Below are positions 38,070-49,105 of a stretch of 64,000 nucleotides of DNA, piece after piece. Position numbers and translations under genes: made by a program. Below the pieces are notes generated by a model. It did no database searches. It worked only from the letters and a program-made list of their open reading frames with translations, and was not told the DNA's origin. Position 1 is the first letter of the stretch, and the number at the start of each line of letters is the position of its first letter. This DNA comes from an uncultured Christensenella sp. (GTDB lineage: Bacteria; Bacillota; Clostridia; Christensenellales; UBA3700). Where the stretch lies: assembly GCA_949284695.1 (NCBI GenBank), contig CASDWJ010000029.1, positions 25,076 through 89,075 on the forward strand. The letters run 5' to 3'.

Positions 38070-40565
38070 ATGAACTACATTTCTTTATGCGGAGAGTGGA
38101 AGCTCTCAAGAAACGACAGCAACGAAACGGTTACCGCTACGGTACCCGGTTGCAACTTTACCGACCTGCTCGCGGCAGACAAGATCCCCGATCCTTTTCT
38201 CGCGTGCTACGAAAAGAGCGTTCAATGGGTCGGCGAAAAGATATGGACGTACGAAAAGACCTTTCAGGCAGACCATGCGATCCTCTCCTCTGCAAAACAG
38301 GAGATCGTGTTCGAAATGCTCGACACTCTCGCCGAGATCTACCTCAACGGAGAGACGCTCGGCAAAACGCAGAACGCGTACAGAACGTACGTTTTCGACG
38401 TAAAAGGCATACTCAAAGAAGGCGAAAACACGGTCAAAGTCGTGTTCTTCTCCCCTCTCGACTATATCCGTCAATGGCACAAGGCGATGCCTTTGCCCAA
38501 CACGACCGAGGGCGAAGCGGGAAGCTGTCATATCCGCAAACCCGCCTATCACTTCGGCTGGGACTGGGCGCCTCACCTGTTGCATTGCGGCATAATGAAG
38601 CCCGCCTATATCCGCGCATACGACGGCGCGCGCCTTGACGGCGCAAGGATAAGGCAGATACACAAGGACGGCAAAGTCACGCTTGAGATCACGCCCGAGA
38701 TCACCGACGGCGAAAACGAGACCGTAGGTTACAGACTGACCTGCCCCGACGGCGAAACCCTTCTCGCGGCGGGAAAAGGCACGGTGAGCATAACCGTGGA
38801 AAACCCGCAACTCTGGTGGACTGCCGACCTCGGCGGTCAGCCGCTGTACAAACTCGAATGCACCCTCGGCAAACAGACCAGGACTTACAATATAGGTCTC
38901 AGGACTCTCGTCCTCGACCGCTCCGCCGACGAATACGGCGAAAACTTCCGCTTCGTACTCAACGGCGTCGGGATCTTCGCGCGCGGCGCCAACTGGGTGC
39001 CCGCGGACAGCTTCGTCTCGCGCATAAAGCGCGCCGACCTCGAAAGACTGCTCGTATCCGCACGCAACGCCAATATGAACATGCTCCGCGCCTGGGGCGG
39101 CGGCTATTACGAAAGCGACGACTTCTACGACCTGTGCGACAAACTTGGCATACTCGTATGGCAGGACTGCATGTTCGCCTGCTCGCCATACCCATATACG
39201 CGCAAAGACTATATGGAAGAAGTAGCGCTCGAGATCGCGGACAACGTCAGGAGACTGCGTCATCACGCTTCTCTCGCGCTCTGGTGCGGCAACAACGAGC
39301 TCGAGCAGATGAGCGGCGCCTGGATGGTCAGACAGGATATCATCGCGCAGGCGGGCGAGTATTTCTATAAGGAACTGCCCGCGATAATAAAGAAATACGA
39401 CGACGTGACGCCTTACCACCAAAGCTCTCCGAGCGGCAACGGCTATATGAAGAACTACAACAACGACGACTACGGCGACTGCCACCTGTGGAAGGTATGG
39501 CACGGCATGCGTCCGTCCGATTATCTGACAAAGCGCAACCCGCGCTTCTGCAGTGAATACGGTCTGCAATCCCTGCCCCACCGCAACACTCTCGTGCGTA
39601 TCAACGGCGGCGCGATGCCCGCGTCGATGAAAGACCCGGTCATGCAGGCGCACCAGAAAGCGCCTTTCGGCAACAGCCGTACCCTTTTCTATATCGTCGA
39701 CCGCTTCTGGTCTCCCGACAATATGGACGACCTCGTATATATGACCCAGCTGAGTCAGGCGTATTGCGCAAGGGTCGCGACAGAAAGCTGGCGCACGAGA
39801 AAGGGACGTTGCAACGGTTCGCTTTACTGGCAGCTCAACGACTGCTGGGGCGTGACGAGCTGGTCGGGATACGACTATTACGGCAACCCCAAGGCGGTGC
39901 ATTACGAGGCAAAGCGCTTCAACGCGCCGCAGACCGTCGTGATACTCAACGATAAAAACGAGCGCAGGATAACCGCGATCAACGATACCCTTGCCGACGC
40001 AGACTTCGACGTTGTGTACGGCATGAAGTCTTTCGACGGAAAGACCGTCTACGAACAGACCCGTCCCGTATCCCTCAAGGCGGGCGAAAGCAAGGAGATC
40101 GCCCGCATAAATCCCAAAGACCACCACGGCGGCAAGCACTGCGTCGTCTTTGCTGTGATGAAGACCAAAGACGGCAGAACGGTCGCCGAGAGATACCATA
40201 CCGCGTTCAAAGAGAAAAAATGTTCTCTGCCCGATCCCGCTATAAGCGTCGCGACGTCTCTCGACAACGGCGTTTACCGCATAGACCTCGCGGCAAAAAC
40301 GTATGCGCGCGGCGTGGAAATTTCTCTGACCGGTATCGACGGAGAATTTTCGGACAACTTCTTCGATATGCCCGCAGGCGGCAAAGCAAGCGTTAGCATA
40401 CGCGTCGGCTCCGACGATAAGGCGGAACTCGACAAGGCGCTCAGAGTGCGTAGCCTTTACGATGTCAGGCGCAAGCAGAACGGCATAAAAGACACGTTCT
40501 TTGCGACGAAAGTGTTCTTCGAGCCGTATAATCTCGTCAACTGGATTTACAGGACAAAGGAGTGA
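38070..40565 (+). CDS. beta-mannosidase, GH2
   Basis: LCGEWKL...VPGCNFTDLLAADKIPDPF N-terminus. LVWQDCMFACSPYP and WCGNNE motifs. GAGGTG RBS before the ATG at 38070. Confidence 0.85.
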   Translation: MNYISLCGEWKLSRNDSNETVTATVPGCNFTDLLAADKIPDPFLACYEKSVQWVGEKIWTYEKTFQADHAILSSAKQEIVFEMLDTLAEIYLNGETLGKTQNAYRTYVFDVKGILKEGENTVKVVFFSPLDYIRQWHKAMPLPNTTEGEAGSCHIRKPAYHFGWDWAPHLLHCGIMKPAYIRAYDGARLDGARIRQIHKDGKVTLEITPEITDGENETVGYRLTCPDGETLLAAGKGTVSITVENPQLWWTADLGGQPLYKLECTLGKQTRTYNIGLRTLVLDRSADEYGENFRFVLNGVGIFARGANWVPADSFVSRIKRADLERLLVSARNANMNMLRAWGGGYYESDDFYDLCDKLGILVWQDCMFACSPYPYTRKDYMEEVALEIADNVRRLRHHASLALWCGNNELEQMSGAWMVRQDIIAQAGEYFYKELPAIIKKYDDVTPYHQSSPSGNGYMKNYNNDDYGDCHLWKVWHGMRPSDYLTKRNPRFCSEYGLQSLPHRNTLVRINGGAMPASMKDPVMQAHQKAPFGNSRTLFYIVDRFWSPDNMDDLVYMTQLSQAYCARVATESWRTRKGRCNGSLYWQLNDCWGVTSWSGYDYYGNPKAVHYEAKRFNAPQTVVILNDKNERRITAINDTLADADFDVVYGMKSFDGKTVYEQTRPVSLKAGESKEIARINPKDHHGGKHCVVFAVMKTKDGRTVAERYHTAFKEKKCSLPDPAISVATSLDNGVYRIDLAAKTYARGVEISLTGIDGEFSDNFFDMPAGGKASVSIRVGSDDKAELDKALRVRSLYDVRRKQNGIKDTFFATKVFFEPYNLVNWIYRTKE

Positions 40566-40568
40566 CGT

Positions 40569-41381
40569 ATGAAAAAAGAATTTTTCACCACTCCTCTGAC
40601 TTCTCTCGCCGCGACGCTGTGCGACTTCGCGGGAGTACAGCCGCCCGAATTTGCCGCGCCCGCCTGCAAAGAACTCAAAGACGCACTCGTCGCGCAGAGC
40701 GGCAGGACAAGCGTGGACAGGATATTGATGTACACCCCCGACGCCGTCGCCGACTACATCTACGACAAATATTACGACAAGTTCGCGCCCTGCGAAAAGA
40801 TAGCGCCCGTCAGACAGCGGTTCATCACGGTCAACCCGCCCAAAACCCCCGTCTGCTTCGCGAGTATGTACACGGGCGCGCAACCCGAAAAACACGGCAT
40901 AACCAAATACGAAAAACCAGTCGTGAAGATTGACAGCGTGTTCGACGCGTTTATACGCGCGGGCAAAAAGCCGTGCATAGTCAGCGTAAAAAATCAGAGC
41001 ATGGACAAGATCTTCCGCGAGCGCGATATGGCGTATTATCAGGAAGCCTACGACGAAGAAGTCGTCGACCGTGCGCTCGAGCTGATAGAAAAAGACGAGT
41101 ACGATCTGATATGCGTATACAATCAGAGCTACGACGACTCGATGCACCGCACGCACCCCAACAGCAAACGCTCTCAGCGCGCGCTCGGTCTGTATGCGTC
41201 CTCTTTCGTCAAACTTGGAGAAAAAGTCAATACTTGTTGGCAAAATCACGACACGCTGATAGGCTTTGCACCCGATCACGGCGTGCACAGAATGTGGATA
41301 GGGCTGGGCAATCACGGCAGTTATATCCCCGAGGATATGAACATATCTCACCTTTACGGCATTATCCCTGAAAAGGCATGA
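40569..41381 (+). CDS. compact alkaline-phosphatase-superfamily protein (NPP / type I phosphodiesterase-like)
   Basis: 270 aa. LMYTPDAVA is a candidate metal-binding Asp. PKTPVCFASMYTGAQPEKHGI resembles PTxTxPxxxSxxTGxxPxxHGI. APDHGVH resembles sDHGM. It starts 4 nt after the beta-mannosidase stop. Confidence 0.6.
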   Translation: MKKEFFTTPLTSLAATLCDFAGVQPPEFAAPACKELKDALVAQSGRTSVDRILMYTPDAVADYIYDKYYDKFAPCEKIAPVRQRFITVNPPKTPVCFASMYTGAQPEKHGITKYEKPVVKIDSVFDAFIRAGKKPCIVSVKNQSMDKIFRERDMAYYQEAYDEEVVDRALELIEKDEYDLICVYNQSYDDSMHRTHPNSKRSQRALGLYASSFVKLGEKVNTCWQNHDTLIGFAPDHGVHRMWIGLGNHGSYIPEDMNISHLYGIIPEKA

Positions 41382-41400
41382 TTTGGTCCGACTTGACAAA

Positions 41401-42343: not shown

Positions 42344-43054
42344 ATGGTTTTCTTCTATATTATAGGCGGGCTGTGCGTGGCGAGTTCTATTGCCAAAGCG
42401 TACTTCGATACGAAAAAAAATGTTAAGCCGGAGTTCATCGCAAAACTTCTCGCAAGCGTCAGCTTTATGTTCTGCGCGGTCTACGCGATATACAACAATC
42501 CCGACGCGGTCGAGTACGGGATCTTCATCCTGTGCGCGCTGATATTCGGCACGATAGGCGATATACTTCTCTGCCTCGACGGCTTCTTCCCCGACAACGA
42601 AAACTACTATAAATTCTTCAACACGGTGGGCACCGCGACCTTCTTCATCGGTCACTTGATGTATATGGCTCTGCTTTTCGTCTACGCGCCGATAAGCAGG
42701 ACTCCCTTCCTTCTCCTCGCCCTGCCGATAATGCCTCTGATAATGCTCGCGCTGATACTCACGGGACAAATATCTTTGCCCAGAATAAAGAGCTACCTTA
42801 TGGTCGTATACTTCCTCGTCGCGGGCGGAGTGATAATAGGAGCGGTCTCCTTCGTGATAAACGCCCATTCTTCGCCTGTCGGCTGGATAGTGCTCGCCGC
42901 GTCGATACTGTTCGCGTTTTCAGACTGCTTCCTCGGGCTGTTCCACTACTGCCCCGCGCTGAAGATAAGCGAAAAGGTCGCGCCGTATATCGTGATGCCT
43001 ACATATTGCATAGCGCAGGTGCTTTACGCGCTGTCGATATACTATATCGCCTGA
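42344..43054 (+). CDS. YhhN-family (lysoplasmalogenase-like) membrane protein
   Basis: 8-TM protein. FGTIGDILL and LFAFSDCFLG resemble the two conserved YhhN motifs. Confidence 0.65.
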   Translation: MVFFYIIGGLCVASSIAKAYFDTKKNVKPEFIAKLLASVSFMFCAVYAIYNNPDAVEYGIFILCALIFGTIGDILLCLDGFFPDNENYYKFFNTVGTATFFIGHLMYMALLFVYAPISRTPFLLLALPIMPLIMLALILTGQISLPRIKSYLMVVYFLVAGGVIIGAVSFVINAHSSPVGWIVLAASILFAFSDCFLGLFHYCPALKISEKVAPYIVMPTYCIAQVLYALSIYYIA

Positions 43055-43082
43055 CGAAAATTTAATTGTATTTCTAAAAGTA

Positions 43083-43111
43083 TTGACAAATTTATTTTAA
43101 TCGGTTATAAT
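43083..43111 (+). promoter_or_regulatory. consensus sigma-70-type promoter of the 903-aa island gene
   Basis: TTGACA (43083-43088), an exact 17-nt spacer, then TATAAT (43106-43111). AAGGAGG lies at 43138-43144, and the ATG is at 43156. Confidence 0.65.
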
Positions 43112-43155
43112 AATCTTCGGTAATACTTCAGAATTGCAAGGAGGTACTGAAGATC

Positions 43156-45867
43156 ATGGCGGGAGTTTATTATAAAAACGTAAGCAACAACGAAATCGAA
43201 AACGAATATGACGTATTCATCGGCTATCACGGCGTTTTTTCAGAGAGCAGCAGTTCTCTAAAGGAAGCCGAGGAGATTGCCCTTTATCTTTACAGCATCG
43301 GATTGAAACCCTTCCTGTTCAACAAATTCTGTTACGAAGCTGACAAGAACATTTACTTTCAGCGTACAGGACAAATTGCCAGACGCTCCAAGGCGTTTTT
43401 GATCGTTCTGAAACACTTTGACAATCTACAGCACATAATAAACGAAAACGGTATTTCTCCGCAGACTCAGCTTTTCGACGAAATCGGCGCATTCATTGAC
43501 GCAAAGCCCGACTGCGCGTTCATCAATGCCGTATATTTCGGACCTGACGATCTGGATCTCAGATCTTTTTACAGAAACATAGGTATCAACGGCGTATCGA
43601 TCAACAACTCCCCCATTACGTCCGGTAACGGCGAAAGCGTGCGTTTTGCAAGTCCTTGTGCCGTTCTCTATTACAAATTGCAAAACTGGCTTCATACTTG
43701 CGGCATATACACGAAAGAGCCAGCCGTCGCCGCAGACGCGGTAACTCTTAGTTACATAGACTACCCTCTGCCGAAATACGCAGACAATGCCACGGCTACC
43801 AGCCTGAAAATAGATTTTCTGCAAGATCTTTACCTCAAATTGCGCTGCAACGCGAGAGAACTGAATCTCGAGATACTTGACAATTACCTAGCCATACTTA
43901 CTGCGATAAAAGCTCATTACAAGCATCTCAGCACGGCGGTGTCTCAGCTAGAAGTTATCGTAAACGCCGCAAAAGAGACCCACAAAGAGGGGCAGATCAG
44001 AGTCAGCGTATTTATCAAACAAAAGATAGATTACTTTCAGAACGCTATTTCCAGTCTCGCTTCGGCAAGTGAAAAGATTATCAGGGAGAACGACAGCGTC
44101 CTGATATTCAGCAGAAGTTCCAGCGTCGAAGAGGTACTCAATACCGACGTCGAGAAAAAAAGCTCGGTATCCGTATACATCGCAGAATGCCGCCAGAAAA
44201 GTCCCTCGTCGTTCGCCGACGCAAAATGCTTCTACAACGGTATCAAGCAGAACAACTACGCAAAGTTTGTGTTTATATCCGACGCGACGGCATGTCAATA
44301 CATAACTTCGGGCAAGATAACCAAAGTCTTTATCGGGGCATGCAGCGTAATCACCGACGAAGACGGTCAGATAACCGAAATAGTCAACACCAACGGAAGT
44401 GCGGTGATAATCGACGCGGCGTTAAGACACAATATCCCCGTTTTTGTTTTTTACACAGAGGACAAGATCGTTGAAGTAAAGGACAGGGATTCGATATTCC
44501 TGCATGACAACGAAAGTATAATTTCAGAAGAAAACCCGGAAAACGGCGTATCATATGCCGACGAAAAATACTCTTTCATAAAGCGGAGACCCAATATGGT
44601 TTTCGTAACGAACGGCGGCACTATGAGCACCGACGATTATCTGTCGTATTTCCGCAGAGACACGTGGAAGGACGCCCGAAAAATTGCCAACTGCAACATG
44701 TGCCATTCAGAGCAAAAATGCTTTGTCAAATCGTGTATAAGCGAAGAAGAATTCAAAGTCGAACTCGCGATACTCAAATATATTGACGGCAAATACCCGC
44801 ATGCCGCCAGACTGTTGAGTTCCAACGCAAAAAAAGCGTCGTTCCACCTTGAAAAAATATCCGGCGCAAGGCTTTATGAAATAATAATGCTCTTGTCCGA
44901 ACTCGGGCGCAGAGGCGTTGCTATTGCGGACACCCTGAAAAACGGTCTGATTAACGAATGCAATAAGCACCAAAACTGCTTGACACTCAAATCCGGATCC
45001 GTACTTGACAATTTTTACAAAACCTATCGCAACGGCAATTCTCCTCTTGTCCCTTATCCCAAGTCAAAGATACGGGAAATGCTTCACAGCATGATCTACG
45101 TACACAGGTACATACTCGGCAGAAAACTCGATTACAACAGAGTAACTCTTGAAAACCAGATCGACGAGCTTTACAACGTCTTTGAAGAAAACGCCAACGT
45201 CCTGTTCCGCGACTCGACGGTTAAGAACATGGTACTCGAAGATATTGCCCTCGACGGTCTCGATCAACTCGAGACTCCGGACAAATATTATACCGCTCTC
45301 AGAAAGCTCAAGGCGATCATAACCTCTCCGTTTTTCGCTGAGGGAAATAGCGACGAAGATACGGTCAAAGACTATCTGCGCAAGCACAAAATACGTGAAT
45401 TCGACTTTTCCTCCTGCGTAAACCTTACAACAAAATGGGATGATCTGATCGGTCTTAATCTGCACGAATCCGTCTATTGTACTCGACAACTGAACAAGGT
45501 GTTGTCAAAACTCAAGCGTCAGAACAGGGCAGTCGAGATAGACGATCCGTGCACGGTTTTCATCACATCTCTGATCGTAAGATACATACGCTTCGGAGGG
45601 CGCAAATATCTGTACAGGTATCTCAATCCAAAGATCCACGCTGTCAGATTCCTTTACGACGACGAGAATTTCTATTTCAATACGCTTCAACATATATGCA
45701 ACGAAGTCCCTCGCAAAGATTGTCTCGAAAATTACAGCGAGATCATTTCCGTACTCAGGCAGATCGGCAGTTACCCACACGAATCAATGCCCTTTGATTC
45801 CATGGAAGCGATTTATCCCGAGGATGCCAAAAACAGGACTCCCTGGATGGGACTTTACAAATTGTAA
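43156..45867 (+). CDS. 903-aa multidomain protein: N-terminal TIR-like domain, central eIF2B/MtnA-like module, C-terminal APH/MtnK-type kinase-like domain (function unknown)
   Basis: Long uninterrupted ORF with a strong RBS. TIR-like: YDVFIGYHG, RRSKAFLIVL, QLFDEI, INAVYFGPDDLD (aa about 18-135). eIF2B-like: SVLIFSRSSSVEEVL, VSVYIAECRQKSP, FISDATACQYI, KVFIGACSVITDEDGQITEIVNTNGSAVIIDAALRHNIPVFVF, MVFVTNGG (aa about 285-495). Kinase-like: FRDSTVKNMVL, REFDFSSC (aa about 505-880). All domain calls are by eye. Confidence 0.6.
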   Translation: MAGVYYKNVSNNEIENEYDVFIGYHGVFSESSSSLKEAEEIALYLYSIGLKPFLFNKFCYEADKNIYFQRTGQIARRSKAFLIVLKHFDNLQHIINENGISPQTQLFDEIGAFIDAKPDCAFINAVYFGPDDLDLRSFYRNIGINGVSINNSPITSGNGESVRFASPCAVLYYKLQNWLHTCGIYTKEPAVAADAVTLSYIDYPLPKYADNATATSLKIDFLQDLYLKLRCNARELNLEILDNYLAILTAIKAHYKHLSTAVSQLEVIVNAAKETHKEGQIRVSVFIKQKIDYFQNAISSLASASEKIIRENDSVLIFSRSSSVEEVLNTDVEKKSSVSVYIAECRQKSPSSFADAKCFYNGIKQNNYAKFVFISDATACQYITSGKITKVFIGACSVITDEDGQITEIVNTNGSAVIIDAALRHNIPVFVFYTEDKIVEVKDRDSIFLHDNESIISEENPENGVSYADEKYSFIKRRPNMVFVTNGGTMSTDDYLSYFRRDTWKDARKIANCNMCHSEQKCFVKSCISEEEFKVELAILKYIDGKYPHAARLLSSNAKKASFHLEKISGARLYEIIMLLSELGRRGVAIADTLKNGLINECNKHQNCLTLKSGSVLDNFYKTYRNGNSPLVPYPKSKIREMLHSMIYVHRYILGRKLDYNRVTLENQIDELYNVFEENANVLFRDSTVKNMVLEDIALDGLDQLETPDKYYTALRKLKAIITSPFFAEGNSDEDTVKDYLRKHKIREFDFSSCVNLTTKWDDLIGLNLHESVYCTRQLNKVLSKLKRQNRAVEIDDPCTVFITSLIVRYIRFGGRKYLYRYLNPKIHAVRFLYDDENFYFNTLQHICNEVPRKDCLENYSEIISVLRQIGSYPHESMPFDSMEAIYPEDAKNRTPWMGLYKL

Positions 45868-45895
45868 TGCGATTGCAGTTAAACACTCTGCGCAA

Positions 45896-45928
45896 CAAAA
45901 AAGGTTCCGTAATTCGGAACCTTTTTTG
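45896..45928. terminator. bidirectional terminator shared by the island gene and the convergent transporter
   Basis: aaaaaa-ggttccg-taatt-cggaacc-tttttt. Confidence 0.8.
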
Positions 45929-45956
45929 TCACCACATCGCTTTAATGCTGCAAACC

Positions 45957-47369
45957 TTATTTTTCTGTCCCACAATTTTTTCTTGCTTCAAGTTCTTTTT
46001 TGATCTCGGCGAACCTCTCTCTGCCCATATTCGCGCGGTAGGCGAATATCACTGATATAAGGAATATCACGCTGGGTACGACCGCAAGCACGACTCTTAT
46101 CGCGATCAGCGCCGACTCAGGCTGATCTATCACGGTGTTGTCAGTGCTCTCTATATAGCCGAAAAGCTCGAGCACGAGCGAGACCACCGCGACGGCAACG
46201 CCCGAAGCGAGCTTGTACATAAACTGCGTGATCCCGTAAAACGCGCCCTCTCTCCTGACGCCGTTGACGTATTCGTCGACCTCGACGACGTCGGGCAGGC
46301 TCGCATAAGGCAGTATCTGTATCGCGGACATGCCGAGCCCTGCGATAACGCACATCAAGACCGTGCTCCATACGACCTGTTCGGGCACGAAAAGCGCGAG
46401 CGACAGCGCGAGGGTCATATATACGCACGCGACGGCGTAAACCTTGTGTTTGCTGAACTTCTCGCTCGCCTTGACCCATATGAAAGAGGACAGTATCGCG
46501 CAGACAAGCGGCGTTGCGATAAACACCATGCTCATCGTGCCGCCTCCGAAGCCCATCGTGTCGTTGATGAAGAACATGAACACGCTCATTATTATATCGA
46601 AGCCGACCATGCTGAGAAGATATGTCGCGATCACGTTGCGGAATTCTTTGAGTCTGAAAAGCTCTTTGAGGGTCGTGAAGAACCCCTGAGTGTTCTCGTG
46701 AGACGTTTCCTTGTTTTCCTTTACAGTCAGCGAGCAGACGAAGAATATCAGCGAAGCGAGCACGCCGAATATGACGGACGCTACTGCGTATGCCTTGCTG
46801 AGAGACCCGAGCGCGCCGTAAAGTATGCTCTCGGTGCCGTCTGCGAGCAACGCGAATACCGCCGCGCCGAGGAGCATGCCGACGTTGGTCATCGCTATCC
46901 TTATGCCGCTGATCGAAGTGCGCTCGTCGTAATCGTCGGTCATGTTGGCGGTCAGCGCGTTGTACGGGATATAGACGACCGTCCAGACCGTGTTGTAAAG
47001 CATGTATACGAGCGTGTAGTAGATCATCTTGGCGACCTGCGCGTTTTCTCCGAAAGGCGCAAGCCATAGCAGAATGAAACTCAGACCGTAGGGTATCGCG
47101 CCGAAGATCATATACACCCTGCGCTTGCCCCATTTGCCGAACTTGGTCTTGTCGACTATCCTGCCCATCATATAGTCGGTGATCGCGTCCCACGCGCGGG
47201 CGATGATGAACACCACCGACGCGAGACCGGCTTTGAGACCTCCGACGTTTACGAAAAAGTAAAGCAGATAAAAAGATATGGCGGCGAACAGAATGTTCAC
47301 CGACATATCGCCGCTGCCGTAAGCAATTTTCTGACCCAAAGATATCTTACCTTTGCGCTCTTCTTCCAT
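45957..47369 (-). CDS. GPH-family sugar:cation symporter
   Basis: 12-TM protein. ARAWDAITDYMMGRIVDKTKFGKWGKRRVYMIFG is a GPH-type motif. Confidence 0.8.
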   Translation of the reverse strand: MEEERKGKISLGQKIAYGSGDMSVNILFAAISFYLLYFFVNVGGLKAGLASVVFIIARAWDAITDYMMGRIVDKTKFGKWGKRRVYMIFGAIPYGLSFILLWLAPFGENAQVAKMIYYTLVYMLYNTVWTVVYIPYNALTANMTDDYDERTSISGIRIAMTNVGMLLGAAVFALLADGTESILYGALGSLSKAYAVASVIFGVLASLIFFVCSLTVKENKETSHENTQGFFTTLKELFRLKEFRNVIATYLLSMVGFDIIMSVFMFFINDTMGFGGGTMSMVFIATPLVCAILSSFIWVKASEKFSKHKVYAVACVYMTLALSLALFVPEQVVWSTVLMCVIAGLGMSAIQILPYASLPDVVEVDEYVNGVRREGAFYGITQFMYKLASGVAVAVVSLVLELFGYIESTDNTVIDQPESALIAIRVVLAVVPSVIFLISVIFAYRANMGRERFAEIKKELEARKNCGTEK

Positions 47370-47386: not shown

Positions 47387-49105
47387 TTATCTGTATTTTT
47401 TCATTTCCTCGTCGATTATCTCTCTGACCTTTGCCACGCAGTCCTTGATCGCGACTCTTTCCGCCTTCTTGGTCGCGCGCATGCAGATCTCGACCTCGCC
47501 GTCTGCGAGCGTCTTGGGAGAGACGACCATTCTGATCGGCATACCCATGAGATCCGCGTCGGCAAACTTGACTCCCGCGCCGCAGTTCCTGTCGTCGAAA
47601 AGCACCTCTACGCCGCTCTCCTCGAGCTGTTTCAAGACCTCGTCGGCGTTCTTCCTGACGTTCTCGTCGTCATAACGGAGCACGCAGATATGCACCTGCC
47701 ACGGAGCGACCGACATCGGCAGTATCAGACCGTTTTCGTCGTTGGATTCTTCGGCAATCGAAGCGATCGCCCTGCCCACGCCTATGCCGTAACAACCCAT
47801 TATCGGGTTGAACGCCTGACCGTCCCTGCCGTGCACGGTCATGCCCATAGCCTTGGTGTATTTTGTGCCCAGCTGGAATATATTGCCTATTTCGATACCG
47901 TTCTCGACCCTGAGTTCGCCTCCGCAGACGGGGCATCTCTGACCCGCTTTGACCTTGGATACGTCGACGTATTTCACGTTCTTGAAATCGCGGTCGGGGC
48001 TGACTCCCGTATAGTGATACTCGGGCTTGTTGGCGCCGCATACCATATTGTTCGTGCCCTCGATCGACTTGTCGAAGATCACGGTCAGTTTGTCCGAAAG
48101 CCCTATCGCGCCGATATTGCCGCAGACGATGTCCTCGCTGATACCGCCGTCGTAAGCGACGACGTTCTTGCCCAGCGCCTTTTTGAGTTTGGCTTCGTTG
48201 ACCTCGAGATCACCTCTGACGAACGCGACGACAAGTTCGTCCTGCTCGCCTTTCACGGCGTAAACGACCGCCTTGATCGTCTTATACTCCGGTATATTCA
48301 GCCTCTTGCAGACTTCTTCTATCGTCTTGTCCTCGCCCGTGAACACCTCTTTGAGTTCGCACGGCTCGTCGTCGTGCTTGTCGAGCACAGAAGTCGCGAC
48401 TTCCATATTCGCGCGGTAATCGCAGTCGTTGCAGAACACGATACTGTCCTCTCCCGCCTCCGTTATCAGCATAAACTCGTGAGCGATACTGCCGCCCATC
48501 ATGCCGGTGTCGGACTTTACGTCAACAAACTTTTTGAGTCCTATCCTTCTGAAAATGCGGTAGTACGCGTCGAACATCCTGTAATAATACTCCCCGAGTT
48601 CTTTCGCGTCGTTGTGGAAGGAATAAGCGTCCTTCATCGTGAATTCCCTGACTCTTATGAGTCCGCCGCGAGCGCGCGCCTCGTCGCGGTATTTGGTCTG
48701 GATCTGATATATCATCATCGGCAGCTGCTGATAGCTCGAAACCGTATGGTTGGCAAGATGCACCGCCGCTTCTTCGTGCGTCATGCCGAGGAGCATATCG
48801 TGCTCGTTCCTGTCCTTGAAGCGCACCATTTCGGAGCCTATCGAGGTATATCTGCCGCTGGACTCCCACAGCTCTCTGGGCATAACGACGGGGAAAAGCA
48901 CTTCCTGCCCGTCTTCTCTGTCCATTTCCTCGCGGATTATAGCCTGGATCTTTCTGCTCATTCTCTGGCAGGGCGGGGTCATCGTATAAATACCTCCGTA
49001 AACCTGCTTGATAAATCCCGCTCTCGACAGGAGAACGTGGCTTCTGATCTTAGCGTCCTGAGGCGCTTCTTTGGTCCTTTCGCATACCAGCTTGCTGAGT
49101 AACAT
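47387..49105 (-). CDS. proS: prolyl-tRNA synthetase (bacterial type with editing insertion)
   Basis: 572 aa from the ATG at 49105. Class II motifs, e.g. LLSRAGFIKQ, RFKDRN...LLGMTHEE, REFTMKDAYSF, GCYGIGVGR. Confidence 0.95.
   Translation of the reverse strand: MLLSKLVCERTKEAPQDAKIRSHVLLSRAGFIKQVYGGIYTMTPPCQRMSRKIQAIIREEMDREDGQEVLFPVVMPRELWESSGRYTSIGSEMVRFKDRNEHDMLLGMTHEEAAVHLANHTVSSYQQLPMMIYQIQTKYRDEARARGGLIRVREFTMKDAYSFHNDAKELGEYYYRMFDAYYRIFRRIGLKKFVDVKSDTGMMGGSIAHEFMLITEAGEDSIVFCNDCDYRANMEVATSVLDKHDDEPCELKEVFTGEDKTIEEVCKRLNIPEYKTIKAVVYAVKGEQDELVVAFVRGDLEVNEAKLKKALGKNVVAYDGGISEDIVCGNIGAIGLSDKLTVIFDKSIEGTNNMVCGANKPEYHYTGVSPDRDFKNVKYVDVSKVKAGQRCPVCGGELRVENGIEIGNIFQLGTKYTKAMGMTVHGRDGQAFNPIMGCYGIGVGRAIASIAEESNDENGLILPMSVAPWQVHICVLRYDDENVRKNADEVLKQLEESGVEVLFDDRNCGAGVKFADADLMGMPIRMVVSPKTLADGEVEICMRATKKAERVAIKDCVAKVREIIDEEMKKYR

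Follow-up and report, generated by a model that had tools for sequence, protein, structure and literature searches.

A divergent TIR-like domain joined to IF-2B-like and kinase-like domains in a candidate single-gene defence protein of an uncultured Christensenella

INTRODUCTION

NADases of the TIR and SIR2 types act as central effectors in the immunity of bacteria, plants and animals, and the systems that employ them differ in how these enzymes are switched on. In the closest described one-protein arrangements, which are ThsA of type I Thoeris (SIR2-SLOG), TIR-SAVED, TIR-STING and the TIR-APAZ protein of SPARTA, an N-terminal effector that cleaves nicotinamide adenine dinucleotide (NAD+) is followed by a C-terminal Rossmann-like sensor. 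Here we describe a 903-amino-acid (aa) protein with apparently the same layout, encoded by one open reading frame (ORF) in a 64,000-nucleotide (nt) stretch of DNA from an uncultured Christensenella sp. (GenBank assembly GCA_949284695.1, contig CASDWJ010000029.1, positions 25,076 to 89,075 of the forward strand). This whole stretch is called the window, and positions are counted from its first letter. The N-terminal domain is predicted to be a divergent TIR domain, and the sensor place is held by an IF-2B-family fold rather than by SLOG, SAVED, STING or APAZ. Unlike in ThsA and the other one-protein effector-sensor NADases, a kinase-like domain or gene accompanies this fold. We class the 903-aa protein as a candidate effector-sensor NADase whose regulatory module is of a new type.

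Our reading is that the ORF is a self-contained, single-gene, three-domain conflict or anti-phage-defence protein with a TIR NADase effector, which we regard as somewhat better than an even bet. The interest of the finding lies more in the domains attached to the TIR domain than in the TIR domain itself: the switch position holds the fold of eIF2B and ribose-1-phosphate isomerases, not linked to immunity in the literature searched, paired with a kinase-like domain for which Pfam has no family. The preliminary description of this sequence had pointed to Thoeris, to the cyclic-oligonucleotide-based anti-phage signalling system (CBASS) and to other bacterial immune systems that use TIR domains. 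Membership of any catalogued TIR system was not borne out. PADLOC returned 0 families for the 903-aa protein and for its relatives P0006 and P0008 (P numbers denote relatives of the 903-aa protein and L numbers the loci of relatives), and no separate ThsB, CD-NTase or Argonaute partner gene is encoded near the ORF; Thoeris and CBASS were rejected on these two grounds. Neither the combination of TIR, IF-2B-like and kinase-like domains nor a module of this kind with swappable effectors appears in PADLOC 2.0 or in a survey of NAD+-ADPr (ADP-ribose) conflict systems (PMC9503650). A literature search, which was incomplete for subscription journals, did not turn up any paper that connects IF-2B/eIF2B-like domains to defence by SIR2 or TIR.

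RESULTS AND DISCUSSION

Sequence evidence for a divergent TIR domain

Positions 43207-43560 of the window (forward strand) encode residues 18-135 of the 903-aa ORF, with the translation YDVFIGYHGVFSESSSSLKEAEEIALYLYSIGLKPFLFNKFCYEADKNIYFQRTGQIARRSKAFLIVLKHFDNLQHIINENGISPQTQLFDEIGAFIDAKPDCAFINAVYFGPDDLDL. The preliminary description had read this segment, from strings that match the translation exactly, as a TIR module with a candidate catalytic glutamate. A profile search with the Pfam models TIR, TIR_2 and TIR-like (DUF1863) gave no match to the 903-aa protein at E<=10. By hidden Markov models (HMMs), the resemblance of the window's N-terminal module to TIR is thus not beyond chance when the module is taken alone; judged from the alignments that follow, it is beyond chance at the level of the family.

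Across ten N-termini, which are 15-31% identical to the window's, the only invariant residues are F21, Y24, G26 and E109, so that Glu109 is the sole invariant residue outside the beta-A strand; it is also invariant in seven full-length relatives. The window N-terminus alone matches P0081 (BLASTP E=9e-10, 34% identity, residues 19-113) and P0006 (BLASTP E=7e-4), and three of the seven family N-termini match Pfam TIR_2 below threshold (best E=2.7e-6), while two match TIR (PF01582). The TIR_2 scores of P0006 (E=1.6e-5, 25.8 bits) and P0008 (E=5e-5, 24.2 bits) lie just under the gathering cut-off of 28. With hhalign, the N-terminal family profile aligned to the SARM1 TIR domain over 101 columns (probability 89.9%, E=1.7e-6), and to the bona fide TIR_2 domains of two relatives, P0117 (82.2%, E=1e-5) and P0138 (60.5%, E=8.4e-5). 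The same profile failed against CheY (0.5%, E=0.13) and Escherichia coli flavodoxin (0.1%, E=0.42). The central 57 residues of the SARM1 sequence used here were confirmed by the printed HMMER alignment. Against PDB sequences, the N-terminal family profile matched SARM1 at only E ~1, and a spurious ATP-synthase gamma match ranked higher.

In these alignments the Glu109 column lines up with the Glu in SARM1 'DWVHKEI', in the same register in the HMMER alignment, and with the Glu of P0138 'SEWVKFESD'. The Glu of HKEI is the residue that we take to be the catalytic Glu642 of SARM1. A second motif after beta-C, G-x-x-D-x-C (G-f-D-x-C in the family), pairs with SARM1 'GALDKC'. The assignment of Glu109 to the catalytic position of TIR NADases in the preliminary description is upheld by this register and by its invariance. 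With SARM1-type TIR domains (TIR_2 PF13676 / TIR PF01582) the protein further shares the beta-A to alpha-E order and the beta-A motif F-I-x-Y-[RH]-G. It differs in being undetected by any Pfam TIR model, in lacking the Trp four residues before the Glu, in having His in place of the strand-end Arg, in longer insertions between beta-C and alpha-C and between beta-D and alpha-E, and in being joined to IF-2B-like and kinase-like domains rather than to ARM and SAM.

A predicted TIR topology

The N-terminus was modelled poorly by AlphaFold in the full-length protein (pLDDT, the predicted local distance difference test, 30-60). A domain-only run on residues 1-185 used a 9-sequence alignment from which bona fide TIRs were purposely excluded. 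Its elements run beta-A (18-24), alpha-A (34-47), beta-B (52-54), a short helix (57-62), alpha-B (64-77), beta-C (78-85), alpha-C (102-116), beta-D (123-127), alpha-D (135-142), beta-E (146-149) and alpha-E (167-181). Every secondary-structure assignment that the preliminary description had made for positions 43207-43560 agrees with this model: YDVFIGY forms beta-A, LKEAEEIALYLYS alpha-A, PFL beta-B, QIARRS the end of alpha-B, AFLIVLKH beta-C and INAVY beta-D, and QLFDEIGAFI lies in alpha-C with Glu109 in mid-helix.

In a Foldseek search of the PDB with this model, the SARM1 TIR domain ranked first (E=9.5e-4) and TIR domains made up 18 of the top 30 matches by manual count; those after SARM1 include IL-18R-beta, IL-1RAPL2, BcThsB, RPS4/RRS1, SPARTA TIR-APAZ, TIR-STING and MyD88. 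The preliminary description had named two findings that would speak against a TIR domain, the lack of a TIR-family match and a generic flavodoxin-like fold. The first holds for the 903-aa sequence taken by itself; as to the second, the model has a TIR topology with SARM1 TIR as its top match, and the CheY and flavodoxin controls fail in hhalign. Residues ~17-185 are thus read as a divergent TIR domain resembling that of SARM1, in which the invariant Glu109 holds the catalytic position, a reading supported by family profile, conservation, architecture and model together. By these comparisons the predicted domain joins the TIR superfamily as a new and highly divergent member, closest to SARM1-type TIRs. 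It also carries a lesson for annotation, in that a real TIR domain can escape every standard TIR HMM.

The IF-2B-like domain keeps a pocket and loses a catalytic dyad

The sole significant Pfam match of the 903-aa protein is to the IF-2B family (PF01008; residues 271-445, E=4.9e-11, 42.8 bits against a cut-off of 22.4; E=6e-12 for the isolated region). Weak matches to TetR_C_42, SWC7 and RecG_wedge fell below their cut-offs and were treated as noise. When the full model was searched with Foldseek, the top 50 PDB matches were all eIF2B alpha, beta or delta subunits or ribose-1,5-bisphosphate (R15P) isomerases, over ~300 columns, so that residues ~210-490 make up a whole IF-2B fold with both of its subdomains. 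Searching PDB sequences with a profile likewise gave eIF2B-alpha (E=3.2e-9) and R15P isomerase (E=5.7e-9).

In the profile alignment, the T-H-C position of the isomerase corresponds to Ser319 (the matched chain, 5yfs, is a C135S mutant), G-A-D corresponds to G-A-C396 and E-T-R-P-K to E-C-R-Q-K. Among 74 distant family members, S319, S321, E344, R346, K348, D355, D376, G394, N411, G414 and K437 are near-invariant, which preserves the sugar-phosphate pocket motifs S-x-S, E-x-R-x-K, D355, D376, N-x-x-G-S/T and K437. The catalytic-Asp position is occupied in the same 74 members by His in 54, Cys in 7 and Asp in 3. The predicted pocket is thus strongly constrained while the canonical isomerase dyad is gone, as in the ligand-binding, non-catalytic eIF2B subunits, to which the domain is closer than to the isomerases; a His or Cys at the catalytic-Asp site may be compatible with altered catalysis. 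A function as MtnA or R15P isomerase was rejected because the Cys/Asp dyad is replaced by Ser319/Cys396. What the domain shares with the IF-2B family as a whole is a PF01008 score above the gathering cut-off and the E-x-R-x-K, G-A-x, N-x-x-G-[ST] and K motifs.

The C-terminal domain carries a protein-kinase-like signature

Residues ~491-903 match no Pfam family, and no similarity to MtnK or APH was detectable there. Conservation was scored in 92 relatives, counting at each position only those that cover it. The position of K525 holds K in 67 and R in 9, and that of E536 holds E in 75/76; D686 and N691 are each present in 85/85 and D750 in 92/92. R685-D686 and K690-N691 are essentially invariant (84-85/85), and the residues that are invariant or nearly so include D750-F751, D762-D763, H770, R809, R812, R816, K817, Y820, R831 and Y840. 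These residues match the Lys / Glu / D-x-x-x-x-N / D-F-x signature of protein-kinase-like enzymes, with a basic cluster in addition.

A 41-sequence profile searched against the PDB gave 49 matches, of which 48 were protein kinases (MARK, DAPK, MLCK), all weak (E 0.04-0.25); in the printed alignments to MARK3, the N-lobe elements beta-3 and alpha-C and the hinge are matched in register. Relatives of the domain give faint RIO1 and ABC1 matches, and weak matches in BFVD are mostly to kinases and to NTP-transferase fusions. With the small kinases of the protein-kinase-like class (RIO, ABC1/UbiB, APH/MtnK-type) the domain shares the beta-3 Lys, the alpha-C Glu, the D-x-x-x-x-N loop and the D-F-x Asp, and it differs from them in an unusual R-D-x-T-x-K-N loop and in the extra invariant DD (762-763), H770 and R-F-G-G-R-K. 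At the level of motifs, residues ~491-903 are predicted to form a protein-kinase-like domain of a new kind, in which all five canonical catalytic residues and the invariant Arg/Lys cluster are preserved, and phosphotransferase activity is probable.

The IF-2B-like and kinase-like pair recurs behind different effectors

An exhaustive HMMER search of 1.84 billion cluster representatives returned 176 proteins at E<=1e-3, which were classified by Pfam, PADLOC and local HMMs. A word-indexed homolog search recovered, even with the family profile, only two near-identical orthologs (87-90%), and with the N-terminus alone gave no match. A motif scan of GTDB found relatives in 2/185,579 species-representative genomes, both of them metagenome-assembled genomes of rabbit-gut Clostridia, and motif scans of JGI metagenomes and IMG/VR found no relatives.

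The relatives were sorted into groups a to f. Group a (P0003, P0006-P0009 and the L015 ORF; 830-914 aa) is collinear with the 903-aa protein at 26-28% identity, and its N-termini read Y-x-[IV]-F-I-C-Y-R-G. In group b (P0117 and P0138) a bona fide TIR_2 domain (53.7 and 87.4 bits; cut-off 28) precedes IF-2B and the same C-terminal domain, which was matched there by local jackhmmer at E ~1e-50. Group c (P0011, P0013-15, P0021, P0029 and P0070) has a long N-terminal region before IF-2B and the C-terminal domain; Pfam scans of six members (P0011, P0013-15, P0021 and P0070) identify this region as Metallophos, and the two scanned against PADLOC, P0011 and P0013, match the CBASS 'Effector' model PDLC00736. 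Group d comprises ~55 proteins, many of 550-620 aa, with an IF-2B-like domain at the C-terminus and no kinase-like domain; the four that were scanned (P0036, P0037, P0044 and P0046) combine SIR2_2 with IF-2B, and their SIR2 domain matches PADLOC ThsA (up to E=1.3e-32). Group e holds P0147, in which HD-CE precedes IF-2B, and P0148, in which TIR-like, SIR2_2 and IF-2B follow one another (P0081 is similar). Group f, ~75 proteins, has the C-terminal domain only, which either stands alone (~375 aa) or follows a MobA-like NTP transferase.

In L012 and L013 the genes for a short-chain dehydrogenase/reductase (SDR), a SIR2-IF-2B protein and the kinase-like protein stand in this order with a 5-nt gap, and L017 has the order SDR, TIR-like-IF-2B, kinase-like gene. 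The corresponding set in L021 is split by an IS630/DDE_3 insertion, with the kinase-like gene on the far side. These gene neighbourhoods show groups d and f to be partners. By this comparison of architectures, the predicted IF-2B-like and kinase-like pair is shown to be a conserved module, fused behind bona fide TIR_2 or Metallophos or split with a ThsA-like SIR2. The natural split and fused versions of the module allow comparison, and E109, C396, K437, D686 and D750 are the key residues that could be mutated. The genes for the three-domain TIR fusions stand alone, in contexts unrelated to one another, beside rpoBC in L007 and beside GH3 and AraC genes in L015.

Several features of individual relatives and loci were noted. 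P0148 (751 aa) combines two domains of NADase type in a single chain, TIR-like at the N-terminus and then SIR2_2, followed by the IF-2B-like domain. Its N-terminus is of the His-variant type found in the 903-aa protein (F-I-A-Y-H-G-T), and its IF-2B-like domain has G-A-H-D at the catalytic-Asp site. P0081 (755 aa, L017 2426-4693) has a TIR-like N-terminus as in P0148 and a C-terminal IF-2B-like domain, and its middle region has no SIR2_2 match in Pfam. The SDR gene (adh_short) directly adjoins the SIR2/TIR-IF-2B and kinase-like genes at L012 764-4399, L013 242-3877, L017 1724-5898 and L021 6001-12123; in L021 a HAD/S6PP-type phosphatase gene follows, and RelA_SpoT and PFK-like genes lie upstream. 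At L018 371-4177, as also in L019 and L020, the P0147 gene stands between an upstream HAD hydrolase gene and a downstream, unannotated gene of 343 aa, which matches neither the kinase-like nor the IF-2B profile and may be an alternative partner. Upstream of P0006 at L007 3229-5240 (also in L008 and L009) are a YpsA-family (SLOG-fold) gene, an unannotated 232-aa gene and an HTH_26 regulator gene, and rpoB and rpoC lie downstream of P0006 in L007. In P0038, P0050, P0053, P0061 and P0124 a MobA-like NTP transferase (NTP_transf_3) precedes the kinase-like domain in the same chain; of these, P0061 has an extra sub-threshold DIT1_PvcA match (25.2 bits against a cut-off of 26.4). This combination resembles pairs of sugar-1-kinases and nucleotidyltransferases.

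Proposed function and its alternatives

In the model that we favour, we infer the trigger, the ligand, the oligomeric state and the NADase activity of the 903-aa protein. The N-terminal domain would be the toxic effector and the IF-2B-like and kinase-like module its sensor or regulator. The kinase-like domain would bind or make an anionic phospho-ligand, or respond to infection, and the IF-2B-like pocket would bind a sugar-phosphate or nucleotide ligand. Members of the IF-2B family occur obligatorily as dimers or hexamers, which close around the ligand, and a TIR NADase is active only when TIR domains assemble with one another; most simply, ligand binding or phosphorylation would therefore drive an assembly that unites the TIR domains into composite active sites. 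NAD+ would then be cleaved via Glu109, and NAD+ depletion or a signal derived from ADP-ribose (ADPR) would arrest the infected cell. The N-terminal domains found at this position are read as outputs, not as steps of one pathway, because their chemistries differ.

In eukaryotes the eIF2B fold regulates the integrated stress response and is a target of viruses. Should the module be a sensor, it would represent a new receptor class, probably with a new small-molecule ligand, in prokaryotic immune signalling, and a prokaryotic counterpart to ligand-regulated eIF2B. A broader proposal, which we hold to be possible though on balance doubtful, is that the pair defines an undescribed bacterial immune family. 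An eIF2B-type pocket would then serve as the receptor controlling interchangeable TIR, SIR2, HD-CE or Metallophos domains, the kinase (with SDR or HAD enzymes in the split versions) would make or modify a messenger derived from phospho-ribose or ADPR, and the 903-aa protein would be the all-in-one TIR version.

A number of observations weigh against a defence role or against its TIR component. No TIR-family match at E<=10 was found in Pfam, PADLOC or NCBIfam for the full protein, for residues 1-181 (Pfam) or for residues 1-185, and PADLOC and PHROGs gave zero defence matches for the 903-aa protein; none of these four collections gave a kinase match either. The Trp of the W-x-x-x-E motif is replaced by Q105 and the strand-end Arg of Y-R-G by H25. 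The domain-only model is of moderate confidence (pLDDT 64.5; predicted template modelling score, pTM, 0.68), and flavodoxin-like ArsH and AzoR-type reductases are interleaved with TIRs at similar Foldseek scores, so that structure alone discriminates weakly. The genes around the ORF (glycosidase, sugar-transporter and transketolase genes) are of housekeeping or sugar-utilisation type, with no recognisable defence island, and tblastn searches with the 903-aa protein and with the stand-alone kinase-like P0016 found no relatives on plasmids or phages. A universal two-gene rule was rejected, since in L011 and L018-20 the IF-2B gene is followed by one that is not kinase-like. Finally, SDR and HAD-phosphatase genes recur beside the two-gene versions, which suggests small-molecule chemistry rather than pure sensing.

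Such chemistry is the basis of the main rival within the immune reading, an enzymatic version in which the three domains act in sequence on one metabolite. The TIR domain would cleave NAD+ to ADPR with a free 1''-OH, the kinase-like domain would phosphorylate the anomeric position, and the IF-2B-like domain would bind or isomerise the resulting 5-substituted ribose-1-phosphate; the outcome would be a new signal molecule, or an NAD+ loss that phage NAD+-reconstitution pathways could not reverse. Kinases of the MtnK and AmgK types phosphorylate sugars at the anomeric position, and 5-substituted ribose-1-phosphates are the substrate class of MtnA and R15P isomerase. The five conserved kinase residues and the invariant Arg/Lys cluster would suit an anionic small-molecule substrate, and the near-invariant IF-2B pocket has an acid/base-capable His or Cys at the catalytic-Asp position. 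The SDR gene beside the module in four loci, the HAD phosphatases in L018-20 and L021, the fusions of the kinase-like domain to MobA-like NTP transferases and the fact that SIR2 and TIR N-termini would both yield ADPR all fit such a chain. However, Metallophos and HD-CE occupy the same N-terminal position and would not give ADPR from NAD+, the isomerase dyad is absent, the C-terminal domain has no MtnK/APH similarity in Pfam, and the proposed chemistry is wholly conjectural. We consider this sequence of reactions unlikely; if the module were enzymatic, the protein would be the first defence protein to process an NADase product further.

A housekeeping origin would make the protein a nucleoside or ribose salvage fusion with no immune role, in which an N-glycosidase (of TIR/nucleoside-2-deoxyribosyltransferase-like fold) is joined to a sugar kinase and a sugar-1-phosphate isomerase, after the manner of the MtnN-MtnK-MtnA route or the DrdK-DrdI route for 5-deoxyribose. 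The IF-2B family does include MtnA and R15P isomerase, with PDB profile matches and weak NCBIfam matches in the present case, and the sugar-related neighbours of the 903-aa gene, the SDR and HAD genes of the two-gene versions and purifying selection on all domains (see below) are what such a fusion would lead one to expect. Against it, both isomerase catalytic residues are replaced and the NCBIfam isomerase score is 19.9 bits, far from the equivalog cut-off of 314. The module is fused to ThsA-like SIR2, HD-CE, CBASS-effector-like Metallophos and bona fide TIR_2, all typical conflict effectors; its distribution is extremely sparse, the low GC content of the gene suggests acquisition, and the neighbours differ wholly between relatives, as in L007 and L015. 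A salvage enzyme is on these grounds improbable. Similarly improbable is a catalytically inert TIR-like or flavodoxin-fold surface for oligomerisation or adaptor contacts, with a structural Glu109 and the activity in the kinase, since the missing direct HMM match, the nearby ArsH and AzoR-type folds, the unconserved Trp and Arg and the moderate model are outweighed by a glutamate that alone is invariant outside beta-A and aligns to the catalytic Glu of SARM1 and the TIR_2 motif Glu, by flavodoxin-fold controls that fail in hhalign, and by the enzymatic effectors (SIR2, HD-CE, Metallophos) that hold the same position in relatives.

Gene, expression signals and genomic setting

The coordinates of the ORF, its expression signals and its domains are collected in Table 1. 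Promoter function is proposed on account of the position of the site 45 nt upstream of the ATG; the total of promoter-like sites in the region is not above the expectation from shuffling. The 903-aa gene is convergent with an MFS transporter gene, and the ORF looks like an independent transcription unit.

Table 1. Features of the 903-aa ORF in the window
Feature	Position	Strand	Remarks
Sigma-70-type promoter, TTGACA-17 nt-TATAAT	43083..43111	+	12/12 consensus match; sole perfect one in the region
Ribosome-binding site, GGAGG	43140..43144	+	11 nt 5' of the ATG; read from the sequence
Complete ORF	43156..45867	+	903 aa plus stop; TIR-like, IF-2B-like and kinase-like domains
Divergent TIR domain (predicted), residues ~17-185	43204..43710	+	From family profile, conservation and model; includes 43207-43560
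Glu109 codon GAA, candidate catalytic glutamate in helix alpha-C	43480..43482	+	Invariant in 10/10 N-termini
IF-2B-family domain, residues ~210-490	43783..44625	+	Helical subdomain 210-310; Rossmann-like subdomain 311-490
ECRQK	44185-44199	+	Retained in alignment to R15P isomerase, as is K437
C396 in GAC	44335-44343	+	At the isomerase catalytic-Asp position; S319 at the catalytic-Cys position
Protein-kinase-like domain (predicted), residues ~491-903	44626..45864	+	Conserved K525 and E536; no Pfam family
FRDSTVKN, residues 684-691	45205-45228	+	Kinase-like domain motif
EFDFSS, residues 748-753	45397-45414	+	Kinase-like domain motif
RFGGRK, residues 812-817	45589-45606	+	Kinase-like domain motif

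An ortholog, P0001, is 90% identical and is found in the same synteny on six metagenomic contigs, in the order GH2 mannosidase, phosphodiesterase-like gene, DUF421, YhhN, the 903-aa gene, MFS, ProRS and transketolase. Against P0001, the ratio of non-synonymous to synonymous substitution rates (dN/dS) is 0.11 overall; part by part it is 0.147 in the TIR-like domain, 0.14 in the linker with the helical part, 0.078 in the Rossmann part of IF-2B and 0.080 in the C-terminal domain. Values of 0.08-0.15 in all parts indicate purifying selection on every part of the protein. The flanking YhhN gene is about equally diverged, and the 903-aa gene is therefore older than the split of the two lineages.

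The GC content of the gene is ~45%, against ~55% in the flanks. Because of its promoter and ribosome-binding site, the dN/dS values, the low GC content and its presence in so few of the GTDB species-representative genomes, the gene is read as functional and as probably laterally acquired. In finer detail, the fraction of GC at third codon positions (GC3) is 0.56 in the 903-aa gene (GC 0.45), as compared with 0.73 in the neighbouring GH2 gene (GC 0.56). The low-GC island (window 43000-46000) is flanked by housekeeping and sugar-utilisation genes and has the 90%-identical ortholog at the same site, which is consistent with an old lateral acquisition.

Among the neighbouring sequences, a 270-aa gene (window 40569-41381, forward strand) begins 4 nt past the stop of the GH2 mannosidase gene and has only a weak Phosphodiest (PF01663) match; it is kept in the ortholog contigs. 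Very long ORFs (up to 1097 aa) lie antisense to real genes such as GH2 and ProRS (window 38106-41399, reverse strand; 47690-49102, forward strand; and similar cases). Their translations are rich in Arg, Ala, Gly and Val, and they are shadow ORFs typical of GC-rich coding sequence, not genes. A terminator-like hairpin with a T-run (window 43549-43565, forward strand) lies within the coding sequence, at the end of the segment 43207-43560; three such sites were found in the region against 3.4 expected by shuffling, and this one is probably due to chance.

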